Positions 1,591 to 54,980 of a stretch of 64,000 nucleotides of DNA are shown piece after piece. This stretch comes from an uncultured Acidobacteriaceae bacterium (GTDB taxonomy: Bacteria > Acidobacteriota > Terriglobia > Terriglobales > Acidobacteriaceae). A program made the position numbers and the translations under genes. The notes below the pieces were generated by a model. The model searched no databases, was not told the origin of the DNA, and saw nothing but the letters and a program-made list of their open reading frames with translations. Within the stretch, counting starts at the first letter, position 1. The number at the start of each line of letters is the position of its first letter. The stretch is from NCBI GenBank assembly GCA_963716385.1, contig OY970305.1, forward strand, positions 2,187,614 through 2,251,613. Reading direction: 5' to 3'.

Positions 1591-1624
1591 CCCAGGTCTC
1601 ATAAGCGAGACCTGGGCGCGCACC
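1591..1624. repeat. REP-like palindrome, family A (CCCAGGTCTC-ATAAGC-GAGACCTGGG..GCACC)
   Basis: Perfect 10-bp inverted repeat with 6-nt loop between convergent nuoN and sdhB. A near-identical copy is at 23065. Confidence 0.8.
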
Positions 1625-20191: not shown

Positions 20192-20239
20192 CCCCACTTC
20201 TCAAGATTGAGAAGTGGGGGGTCGGGATGTGGGGGCACC
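20192..20239. repeat. REP-like palindrome CCCCACTTCTCA-AGAT-TGAGAAGTGGGG with GCACC tail
   Basis: Perfect 12-bp stem at 20192-20219 and GCACC at 20235-20239. Same architecture as family A. Confidence 0.65.
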
Positions 20240-23064: not shown

Positions 23065-23095
23065 CCCAGGCCTCGAAAGCGAGACCTGGGACACC
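23065..23095. repeat. REP-like palindrome, family A (CCCAGGCCTC-GAAAGC-GAGACCTGGG-ACACC)
   Basis: Near-identical to the copy at 1591; intergenic, downstream of the aminopeptidase. Confidence 0.8.
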
Positions 23096-47142: not shown

Positions 47143-49077
47143 TCAGCTTGCCGTCTGGGCCTCATGAAAGTGCCTCCAGATCACTTCGGCGGTCTTTCTG
47201 GGGACGACCGCGGCAAGGGATTCGGCGGTGGCCTGCCGCACGTCGCGTAGGCTGCCGAAGTGGGTGAGCAGGCGCTGGCGGGTTTGCGGGCCGACGCCGG
47301 GGATGGTTAATAGCTCTGAATCGCGGTCGCGCATGGCGCGTCGCTGGCGGTGATAGCCGACGGCGAAGCGGTGGCTCTCGTCGCGGATGAGCTGGACGAG
47401 ATGCAGCACCGGCGAGCGGCGGTCGAGGACCACGGGCTCCTGCTCGTTGCCGTAGAGGTAGATGACCTCCTCTTTCTTGGCGATGGAGGCCAGCGGCGGC
47501 TGGGCGAGGCCGGATGAGGTGAAATCGAGAGACTCCAGAGCTTCGGCGGCGGCGTGCAGCTGTCCCAGTCCGCCGTCGATGAGGATCAGCGAGGGCAGAG
47601 GCTGGGCTTTGTTTTTGTCGTCCTTTTCTTCGAGAAGCCGGCGGTAGCGGCGGCGTACGACCTCGCGCATGGAGGCGAAGTCGTCCACGCCGAGGACGGT
47701 CATCACCTTGAATTTGCGATAGGCGGCCTTGTTCATCTTGCCGTCTTCCCAGACGACCAGCGAGGCCACGGTCTCCGCGCCCTGAATGTGCGAGATGTCG
47801 AAGCACTCGATGCGGCGGGGCAGCTCGGGCAGCATCAGGGCGTCGGCCAGGGCCTCCTGAATGGCTTTGCGCGAGGGCTCCAGGACGCGGAAGCGCTGGG
47901 TGTAGGACTGGCGGGCGTTTTGCGCGGCGAGATCGACGAGCGAGCGCTTTTCGCCGCGCTGGGGAACTGCGATTTCGATGCGGTGGCCGGCGCGCTCGGT
48001 GAGCAGGGCGGCCAGGGTTTCGCGGTCGTCGAAGCCTGTGGGGACGAGGACGGAGCGCGGGACGTAATGCCGGCCGATGTAGAGCTGCTTGAGCAGGGCG
48101 GAAAAGACCTGGCCGGCGTGAAAGGCTGCTGAGGGCTCCTCAGGCTTCGTGGTCTCCAAGGTCTCAGAATTGAGGCCTGCGGCACCTGACGCCTCAGCGG
48201 TTTCGAGCGGATGGGGCAGTTCATCCCAGAAGAACTCACGGCGGTCGACGATCTTTCCGGCGCGGACGTGAAAGAGGTTGACGGCCAGTTTGCCGGCCTC
48301 GAAGTGGTAGCCGAAGACGTCGGCGTCGTCGTTCTGCTCGGCGGTGGCGGCGCGCTGTTTTTCCTGGAGCTGGTGGACGGTGGAGATCTGGTCGCGCAGG
48401 CGGGCGGCGGCTTCGAACAGCTCGGCTTCGGCGGCGGACTTCATGCGCGCCGTGAGGGTGCGTTCGAGCTCGGCGTGGCGTCCTTCCAGCAGCAGCCGCG
48501 CGTCGCGGACGGCGCTCGCGTAAATCTCCGGCGTGGTGAGGCCTTCGACGCAGGGGCCGAGGCAGCGGTGAATGTAGTACTGCAGGCAGGCGCGGGGATG
48601 ATAGCGGGAGAGATCGACCTTGCAGCTGGGAATGAGAAAGCTGCGATGGATGAGCTCGACCACACGCCAGGCGAGGCTGCCGGGAAAGTAGGGGCCGAAG
48701 TAGGCCGCGCCATCCTTGAGCAGGCGGCGGGTGACGAAGACCTTGGGAAAGCGGTCGCCCAGCGTGAGCTTCACATAGGGGTAGCTCTTGTCGTCCTTGA
48801 GCAGGATGTTGAAGCGCGGCTTGCGCTCCTTGATGAGGTTGGTTTCCAGGGCCAGCGCCTCGGACTCGTTGGCCACCAGGATGTAGTCCAGATCGACGGC
48901 CTCGCGCATCAGCGAGCCGGTCTTGGCATCGGCCTGGGCCGCCTCAAGCAGGTAGGAGCGGACCCGCGCGCGGAGGTTGTTGGCCTTGCCGACGTAGATG
49001 ACCTGGCCCTCAGCGTTCTTGTAGAGGTACACGCCGGGCTCGGTAGGCAGATTACGGATTTTTTCGTACAGGTCCAT
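47143..49077 (-). CDS. uvrC: Excinuclease ABC subunit C
   Basis: PGVYLYK..IYVGKA (GIY-YIG), PRFNILLKDDKSYPY, RIECFDISH, DGGLGQL, IRDESHRFA, IPGVG (HhH). Confidence 0.96.
   Translation of the reverse strand: MDLYEKIRNLPTEPGVYLYKNAEGQVIYVGKANNLRARVRSYLLEAAQADAKTGSLMREAVDLDYILVANESEALALETNLIKERKPRFNILLKDDKSYPYVKLTLGDRFPKVFVTRRLLKDGAAYFGPYFPGSLAWRVVELIHRSFLIPSCKVDLSRYHPRACLQYYIHRCLGPCVEGLTTPEIYASAVRDARLLLEGRHAELERTLTARMKSAAEAELFEAAARLRDQISTVHQLQEKQRAATAEQNDDADVFGYHFEAGKLAVNLFHVRAGKIVDRREFFWDELPHPLETAEASGAAGLNSETLETTKPEEPSAAFHAGQVFSALLKQLYIGRHYVPRSVLVPTGFDDRETLAALLTERAGHRIEIAVPQRGEKRSLVDLAAQNARQSYTQRFRVLEPSRKAIQEALADALMLPELPRRIECFDISHIQGAETVASLVVWEDGKMNKAAYRKFKVMTVLGVDDFASMREVVRRRYRRLLEEKDDKNKAQPLPSLILIDGGLGQLHAAAEALESLDFTSSGLAQPPLASIAKKEEVIYLYGNEQEPVVLDRRSPVLHLVQLIRDESHRFAVGYHRQRRAMRDRDSELLTIPGVGPQTRQRLLTHFGSLRDVRQATAESLAAVVPRKTAEVIWRHFHEAQTAS
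48156..48186. repeat. Degenerate family-A REP copy inside the uvrC coding sequence
   Basis: CCAAGGTCTCAGAATTGAGGCCTGCGGCACC aligns without gaps to the 31-nt copy at 23065; encodes GAAGLNSETL. Confidence 0.65.
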
Positions 49078-49344
49078 GGTTCGGGTCCGGACCGCCGGCG
49101 CCAGCATCTAGGATAGCGGCTTAGCGGCGCGGAGCAGGGAATCCTTACCTTGCCAGGTAAAAAGTACACGGTCCAGCCCTCCGCACGCTTTTCATGATTT
49201 CGACGTAACCTGCTGATTTGTCAAGAGCTTGCCAGATTGGCCCTGTTTGGTCCTGCGAATGCATTAACACTAGCGACAACAAAGGGATCGCGGTGCATTC
49301 AAGCCCTTGAGGCGAGTGCGGCGAAAGAAAAAGGGGAAGAGACG

Positions 49345-51956: not shown

Positions 51957-51960
<4 letters not shown>
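50899..51960 (-). CDS. CPBP family intramembrane glutamic endopeptidase
   Basis: [23 protein letters not shown]; about 8 TM. Confidence 0.87.

Positions 51961-54980
<3,020 letters not shown>

Follow-up and report, generated by a model that had tools for sequence, protein, structure and literature searches.

How does a palindromic repeat that lies mainly between genes come to be read as part of UvrC, a core repair enzyme? The question is raised by a stretch of 64,000 nucleotides (hereafter the window) from an uncultured Acidobacteriaceae bacterium (contig OY970305.1, positions 2,187,614 to 2,251,613), in which a sequence-only reading had noticed, inside uvrC, a decayed copy of a repeat resembling the repetitive extragenic palindromic (REP) elements and had called it domesticated. 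The source genome, of the genus Terracidiphilus, is a single contig of 4.18 Mb with 62.5% G+C. The uvrC segment is, we conclude with high confidence, an old, mutated copy of a mobile REP-like hairpin, sitting in frame in a probable surface loop of the protein and most likely carried there as a tolerated passenger.

The repeat family and its copy in uvrC

The gene and the segment occupy the following positions of the window:

47143 to 49107, minus strand: uvrC, an intact open reading frame (ORF) of 654 aa, recognised from its Pfam domains and from orthologues 80-96% identical
48143 to 48189, plus strand, antisense to uvrC: decayed REP-like hairpin copy, recognised from its matrix score, its sharing with locus L111 and its stem pairing
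48143 to 48155: 5' extension of this copy
48156 to 48165: 5' arm, CCAAGGTCTC
48166 to 48171: loop, AGAATT
48172 to 48181: 3' arm, GAGGCCTGCG
48182 to 48187: tail, GCACCT

The plus strand from 48156 to 48186 reads CCAAGGTCTC-AGAATT-GAGGCCTGCG-GCACC, and the coding (minus) strand gives GGT GCC GCA GGC CTC AAT TCT GAG ACC TTG, that is GAAGLNSETL, residues 308-317 of UvrC; palindrome and peptide are as the sequence-only reading had given them and lie within the UvrC ORF. The predicted peptide from the copy, in frame within the UvrC loop, is GAAGLNSETLETT.

The oriented consensus of the repeat family is ..(t)tcgtggttt CCCAGGTCTC araakc GAGACCTGGG GCACCCgg. Its hairpin follows the format ..gtttCCCAGGTCTC-araakc-GAGACCTGGG-GCACCC, with a 10-bp stem and a 6-nt loop in an element of ~45 nt. 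Exact stems were found in 20 copies and stems with at most three mismatches in ~60, and several paired stem variants (TCCC/GGGA, TCTG/CAGA, CATG/CATG and CCGG/CCGG) occur among the genome copies. Scanning with a 40-nt weight matrix trained on 49 copies, from which the uvrC site had been left out, yielded 87 distinct copies in the genome at a threshold of at least 15 bits. These copies lie mainly between genes: only 6 of the 87 had a strong coding signal on both flanks, as judged by codon-usage score, with 3-4 more near C-termini. Almost all are singlets, the closest pairs in the genome being at least 168 nt apart, and they are not arranged as inverted doublets. Neither a GTAG nor a CGTC tag is present in the consensus (tttCCCAGGTCTC..GAGACCTGGGGCACCC), which has a conserved GCACCC tail instead. 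When the window was compared in full with Rfam at gathering thresholds, two tRNAs were the only hits, and the hairpin fits no curated RNA family. We also considered whether the hairpin might be an intrinsic terminator and rejected this reading, since no T-run follows it in either orientation.

Two intergenic copies in the window, already pointed out by the sequence-only reading, have perfect or near-perfect 10-bp stems:

1591 to 1616, plus strand: intergenic repeat copy whose 10-bp stem is perfect and whose tail has diverged, neither flank showing a coding signal; RNA fold of -20.4 kcal/mol (z = -4.7)
23065 to 23090, plus strand: intergenic repeat copy with a C variant in the 5' arm, matrix score 44.7 bits; RNA fold of -24 kcal/mol (z = -5.1)

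Another hairpin of the window, at 20193-20218 (CCCACTTCTC aatctt GAGAAGTGGG), has a related shape and another stem, with 4 mismatches to the consensus, and may be a member of another subfamily.

The uvrC site scored 32.6 bits, which places it at rank 59 among the ~100 sites of at least 15 bits when both strands are counted. The highest score in 10 whole-genome shuffles (84 Mb in total, triplets being shuffled within 3-kb blocks) was 14.6 bits, so that the uvrC site stands ~18 bits above it, and matches with at most three mismatches are expected by chance only 0.02 times per window. The resemblance is also better than had been claimed, reaching into the loop (5/6), the GCACCC tail (5/6) and the 5' extension ttcgtggt. 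Both this score, far above chance, and the match beyond the stems thus establish the uvrC site as a genuine but decayed member of the family. The decay is visible in the stem, where 7/10 Watson-Crick pairs are left, and in the mRNA fold, which is close to that of shuffled sequences (z = -1.2), in contrast to the two intergenic copies.

An expanded UvrC loop and its probable turnover across the genus

The segment falls in the first of two UvrC regions that vary in length among orthologues:

48103 to 48225, minus strand: UvrC hypervariable loop 1, residues 295-335, DELPHPLETAEASGAAGLNSETLETTKPEEPSAAFHAGQVF, defined from loop lengths and from an AlphaFold2 (AF2) model
47593 to 47637, minus strand: second insertion-prone linker of UvrC, residues ~491-505, LEEKDDKNKAQPLPS, defined from its expansion in orthologues

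Pfam recognised the GIY-YIG, UVR, UvrC_RNaseH (261-404), UvrC_RNaseH_dom and HhH domains in the uvrC ORF. Loop 1 lies inside the N-terminal RNase H-like domain, between a strand ending in REFFW and the helix FSALLKQLY. It measures 41 residues in the present genome and 26-126 across Terracidiphilus (from DRREFFW to FSALLKQLY), whereas the median is 12 residues (5-95% range 10-15) in 134 diverse UvrCs, a set of cluster representatives of 37-69% identity aligned with the fast mode of MAFFT. A GAPGL..ETW-like peptide was found in none of these 134 representatives. Judging from these lengths, the expansion of loop 1 is lineage-specific. The PDB matches cover residues 13-109 and 413-649 of UvrC and none spans the loop. 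We therefore give only the secondary structure of an AF2 model built from a 36-sequence genus-level alignment (mean predicted local distance difference test score, pLDDT, 58; predicted template modelling score, pTM, 0.35). In this low-confidence model, the loop maps to unstructured coil (residues 297-327, pLDDT <50) between a strand (285-294) and a helix (331-343).

To follow the repeat among relatives, we used a sample of UvrC orthologues comprising 110 loci and 120 further proteins, mostly from metagenome bins. The repeat was present at 20 bits or more in loop 1 of 24 of the 98 full-length orthologues of the genus. All 27 loop-1 copies that were scored run antisense to uvrC, keep codon phase 0 and yield the peptide GAPG(L/P)xS(E/G)TWE, and 12 of them have perfect 10-bp stems, corresponding to mRNA hairpins of -19 to -21.6 kcal/mol. 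Perfect-stem copies of 56-63 bits occupy the same place in loci L014, L049, L059, L072 and L105. Position could be measured for 26 loop-1 copies; for 17 of these, the distance to the conserved downstream Phe codon of FHAG is 23 or 26 nt, irrespective of how long the preceding part of the loop is. Among the matches of at least 30 bits in 479 kb of genus loci, 27 in all, 21 fall in the ~150 nt of loop 1; the 39 kb that represent the order's other families contain no match of this strength. Of 18 distinct peptide contexts in UvrC, 16 show the Ser (TCT) variant of the repeat loop, whereas the corresponding base is present in 17 of 49 genome copies.

Apparent 2.7-2.8-kb matches in L039, L047 and L088 were discarded, as they are not uvrC insertions and correspond to a small downstream HhH gene. 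This gene, of 63 aa and similar to the UvrC C-terminus, lies ~0.7 kb downstream of uvrC (L111:4220-4411, and in L039, L047 and L088) and is absent at that place in the present genome.

The nearest relative in the databases is protein P0001 of locus L111 (a 580-kb JGI metagenome contig), whose UvrC shows 96% protein identity and 95% DNA identity. L111 carries the same copy together with its derived bases, GGCCTC for GGTCTC, TTGG for TGGG and, downstream, AGACCACGAAGCC / AGACCACGAAGCCTGAGGAGCCC. The change of TGG to TTG (Trp to Leu) that the sequence-only reading had singled out is thus real and common to both. Given these shared derived bases, the uvrC copy is, on the evidence of the two sequences, older than the split between the lineages of the present genome and L111. 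The L111 copy also has a 24-nt extra insert, AGCCTGCCCTGAGCTTGCCGAAGG (EPALSLPK), nested after the CCCAG of the first arm; AGCCTGCCCTGAGCTTGCCGAAGG belongs to another small repeat family, which is nested in L026 and L029 too.

The cleanest gain was observed in L049, where a 59-bit copy makes a net difference of +42 nt relative to its near-identical sisters L070 and L076 and to the outgroup L033, all three without the copy. Recognisable insertion boundaries are seen in this comparison and a lineage-specific expansion in loop length (12 versus 41 residues), the two points that the sequence-only reading had proposed to check. The L049 junctions show no obvious direct duplication, and the insert of L014 has GGGTGCCCCA/GGGTGCCCTA on its two sides, but this forms the head of a repeat next to it. 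On a maximum-likelihood tree of UvrC computed without the loop, at least 19 changes between presence and absence have to be assumed for the 24 occurrences, a count that leans towards the upper side because many forks are weakly supported and the resolution is moderate. Tandem loop-1 copies are found in L027 and L093, and nested ones in L006, L026, L029 and L111; such arrangements show that activity has continued at loop 1.

The loop is not reserved to a single repeat. At least three further repeat families occur in it (loci including L013, L022, L026, L028, L031, L052 and L084; proteins within P0005-P0120). The first gives the peptides ALCQGTTxVVPQ..GALAPEG, LKGHDFSRA..ALAPEG and KGTGFSPY..GALAPEG, and the ALCQGTTxVVPQ, LKGHDFSRA and KGTGFSPY peptides appear to be one family read in different frames. 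The second, GAPSFPxxxAERVGDH, shares its GGGTGCCCCA head with the uvrC repeat (L052, L084), and the third gives VILSxxS..VEGSAVA and CHPER..VEGPA. A simple GSGIRDQG motif is also recurrent in loop 1. The second linker, between RRYRRL and LPSLILIDGG, is 15 aa long and free of repeats in the present genome, and reaches 28-97 aa in orthologues (L011, L026, L028, L056, L071, L082, L093 and L095), where it is filled by the LKGHDFSRA..ALAPEG family; in the case of L026 and L095, the uvrC repeat itself (GAPGLDSET) is among the fillers.

These observations can be assembled into the following scenario. An ancestral UvrC loop of ~12 residues would have become a landing site in the genus, in which the uvrC repeat and at least three other palindromic families would insert, duplicate, nest, replace one another and erode, the survivors being only those events that brought no stop codon and kept the reading frame. 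The present copy was inherited from before the L111 split and has since lost the stability of its hairpin. Between a single insertion followed by turnover and repeated site-specific insertion, we favour, in our reading of the sequences, an early insertion followed by repeat-on-repeat turnover and by some gains de novo. Positional homology would fit the excess of the Ser variant and the constancy of the copies in position, orientation and frame, and turnover starting from a resident copy would predict the same pattern of position, frame and Ser. Thanks to the shared GGGTGCCCCA head, one family could replace another with the phase unchanged.

Other host proteins and a candidate transposase

The repeat is also found inside other genes of the genome, the intragenic copies having been picked by the codon-usage score of both flanks. 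Their hosts, with the peptides they would encode, are:

ValRS-like class I aminoacyl-tRNA synthetase: insert spanned by Pfam tRNA-synt_1; peptide LGAPGLDSETWESN
Oligopeptidase B: insert spanned by Pfam Peptidase_S9_N; peptide PGAPGLDFETWETS
AMP-binding enzyme: insert spanned by Pfam AMP-binding; peptide PRSQNRDLGHP, in another frame
FAD-oxidase/Fe-S protein: insert after the Fe-S domains; peptide MGAPGLASETWETS
RsmI: insert after the TP_methylase domain; peptide AGAPGPDAGTRESI
Large TPR/FG-GAP-like protein: sixth internal copy, host identified by eye

The consensus can be read without a stop in five of its six frames, and the GAPGLxxETWE frame is the one used most often. It recurs in the ValRS-like synthetase, oligopeptidase B, the FAD/Fe-S oxidase and RsmI, a favourable outcome of the proteome check that the sequence-only reading had proposed. 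In valS (G000:C1:911300-914310), the copy LGAPGLDSETWESN is perfect, in frame and inside the catalytic domain. The gene is broken across at least three reading frames in the present assembly, which suggests residual indel errors. The copy of oligopeptidase B (G000:C1:3254643-3257024), PGAPGLDFETWETS, scores 64.8 bits and lies in a beta-propeller loop. Nearly all of ~106 genus orthologues of this enzyme (P0121-P0240) carry either the repeat or the GAPSxxxxxRVGDH family in the same loop, and only a few have a 13-residue 'empty' loop. From the in-frame copies in several proteins and from these orthologues, the insertion of repeats in frame is, as read from the genes, a genome-wide and genus-wide process.

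A probable remnant of the repeat is also present in uvrA (51957-54980, minus strand), elsewhere in the window:

52052 to 52084, plus strand: probable half-copy of the repeat in the C-terminal tail of UvrA, matched by CCAAGGTCTCAGAATCGAGA at 19/20 positions

CCAAGGTCTCAGAATCGAGA covers the 5' arm, the loop and the start of the 3' arm; the remainder is eroded and the full-matrix score is -0.9 bits. The remnant reads ..NVLDSETLD.. in a C-terminal extension past YTGQFL, in the same frame as in UvrC, and is probably a second, older in-frame copy.

What could move such a repeat? By combining a regular-expression search with Pfam, we found at least one Y1 (IS200-like) transposase ORF in the genome (G000:C1:4163495-4164046; PF01797, E = 2e-9). 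Inverted hairpins ..CAAGGATGGGGCACCC, i.e. ..CAAGGATGGG|GCACCC, border this ORF on either side, in a layout that would match that of a REPtron/TIRtron. Genome-wide, 63 of the 99 GGGGCACCC sites adjoin a hairpin, and the main hairpin families at these sites are the uvrC repeat (..GAGACCTGGG|GCACCC) and the transposase-flanking family. GGGGCACCC alone is not over-represented in the genome (99 occurrences, the median of 9-mers with equal composition being 153), and what stands out is its association with hairpins. The GGGGWSAS motif of the acidobacterial TIRs of Di Nocera et al. fits GGGGCACC inexactly. By analogy with known systems, we infer that the Y1 transposase most likely drives the spread of the repeat: this enzyme, of RAYT/TIRYT type (RAYT, REP-associated tyrosine transposase), would recognise the hairpin and its GGG|GCACCC tail on single-stranded DNA, as the RAYT of Escherichia coli acts on tagged single-stranded hairpins.

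Rival readings and known systems

The presence or absence of the repeat among orthologues, the decay of its hairpin, the unrelated repeats in the same loop and the short, unconserved loop elsewhere speak for a passenger that a flexible linker tolerates, not for an acquired function. Several observations weigh against this conclusion. The translation of the segment and the activity of an insert-bearing UvrC are predictions from DNA, and selection acting on the peptide or on the RNA might also explain why the frame is uniform and the position fixed. Both tags that mark the described REP superfamilies, GTAG and CGTC, are missing from the repeat, and the hairpins flanking the Y1 gene form a sister family whose only resemblance to the uvrC repeat is the GGG|GCACCC tail. 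The quality of the AF2 model is poor, and the description of loop 1 as a disordered surface loop leans mainly on sequence variability. Finally, frameshift errors exist elsewhere in the assembly, as in valS; the uvrC ORF itself is unbroken, and the independent L111 contig corroborates the sequence of its loop.

A more specific reading would make of loop 1 a true landing pad, in which a shared GGGTGCCCC head/tail is recognised by the Y1 transposase or by recombination, so that families replace one another or nest with a fixed phase and form a hypervariable cassette, possibly with selection for strong hairpins inside the mRNA. This is conceivable, although we find it rather doubtful. If true, a self-renewing peptide cassette would be present in UvrC, oligopeptidase B and ValRS across the genus.

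At the other extreme, a single insertion in the ancestor of the genus, followed only by vertical decay and loss without ongoing insertion, would account for the fixed position and frame, for the predominance of the 'S-E' loop codon and for the copy common to L111. We consider it unlikely, because perfect copies of 56-63 bits persist in lineages whose UvrCs are only ~80% identical, where decay would be expected, and because the 24 occurrences need at least 19 changes on the tree, even though many of its forks are weakly supported. The L049 copy missing from both sisters and from the outgroup, and the tandem or nested copies of L027, L093, L029 and L111, argue in the same direction.

Homologous recombination of uvrC alleles between Terracidiphilus strains could also spread presence and absence of the repeat, which is indeed scattered on the tree, and the L049 unit includes a downstream ..ESRPPEQ resembling the uvrC-specific context in other species. 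That downstream stretch is, however, partly the element's own extension aaaccacgaatc, seen at intergenic copies too, and we regard recombination as an improbable main source of the pattern.

The word 'domesticated' in the sequence-only reading points to another rival, in which the GAPGLxSETWE peptide or the RNA/DNA hairpin would be selected for a role, for instance as an interaction motif, in translational pausing, in mRNA stability or as a regulatory structure. Orientation, frame and position are indeed constant in the loop copies, 12 of them have perfect 10-bp stems with paired variants (TCCC/GGGA, CCCCGG/CCGGGG), and, compared with genome copies, the loop codon favours Ser over Phe; Di Nocera et al. 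also raised the speculation that repair genes do not receive such insertions by accident (PMC3733652). Yet about three quarters of the sampled genus orthologues do without the repeat, which is decayed in the present genome and in several others. Stem variants exist in intergenic copies too and need not be compensatory in place, unrelated repeat families occupy the same loop, and the same peptide occurs in unrelated enzymes. We thus abandoned the term 'domesticated' and hold such a role to be very unlikely: variable presence, a decayed hairpin and a probably disordered loop favour a tolerated passenger. As for a chance resemblance between a low-complexity acidic loop and the palindrome, the three stem mismatches and a fold no better than shuffles would allow it, but a score of 32.6 bits against a shuffle maximum of 14.6, a similarity running on into loop, tail and 5' extension, and perfect copies in orthologues at the same position and frame make it practically inconceivable.

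In-frame palindromic repeats are commonly seen as a curiosity of Rickettsia, tied to the relaxed selection of intracellular parasites. Our results indicate that such a process operates in free-living Acidobacteria of peat and soil, on core enzymes including UvrC, ValRS, oligopeptidase B and probably UvrA. More than 200 orthologue sequences of UvrC and oligopeptidase B, with repeated hits in a single loop and a single frame, form a natural series that bears on the birth of peptides from selfish DNA and on the rate of their decay. The same series bears on whether hairpins in coding mRNA are tolerated or used, and on the preference for repair genes suspected by Di Nocera et al. From a practical point of view, repeat-derived segments inflate loops and can mislead annotation, alignment and structure prediction in this clade.

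Among known systems, the REPIN-RAYT pairs (Bertels & Rainey; RAREFAN, 10.1101/2022.05.22.493013) resemble the present one in combining an apparently single-copy, hairpin-flanked Y1 gene with tens of hairpin copies. They differ in that the copies are here almost all singlets instead of inverted doublets, and in that the candidate Y1 gene is flanked by a sister family.

The Rickettsia palindromic elements (RPEs) are in-frame palindromic repeats (Ogata et al. 2002 and Ogata et al. 2000 Science 290:347, cited after PMC10969869). They too lie in frame in many unrelated housekeeping proteins and have copies between genes, and their sites are regarded as compatible with the fold. RPEs measure ~100-150 bp and encode 35-50 aa in an obligate intracellular host, against ~45 nt and ~13-15 aa here, in a free-living peat/soil bacterium. 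The likeness is one of process, and the analogy drawn by the sequence-only reading stands in that respect, the element itself being shorter.

The closest precedent is the survey of Di Nocera, De Gregorio & Rocco 2013 (BMC Genomics 14:522, PMC3733652), who described REPs lying wholly inside ORFs in several phyla, many of them intragenic REPs in uvrA/B/C, uvrD, polA and recBCD that in some cases share one site between genomes, and who defined an Acidobacteria-specific group of Y1 transposases. Like those elements, the present repeats are short stem-loops, mostly intergenic, with a minority wholly in ORFs. Unlike them, the present family has GCACCC in place of GTAG/CGTC, and neither the genus nor the family appears in that paper; moreover, two loops are here filled genus-wide, in one frame and by at least four families. 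In-frame repeats in uvrABC were thus already known (PMC3733652), and what is new is this repeat family, this host clade and the dense record left in one loop.

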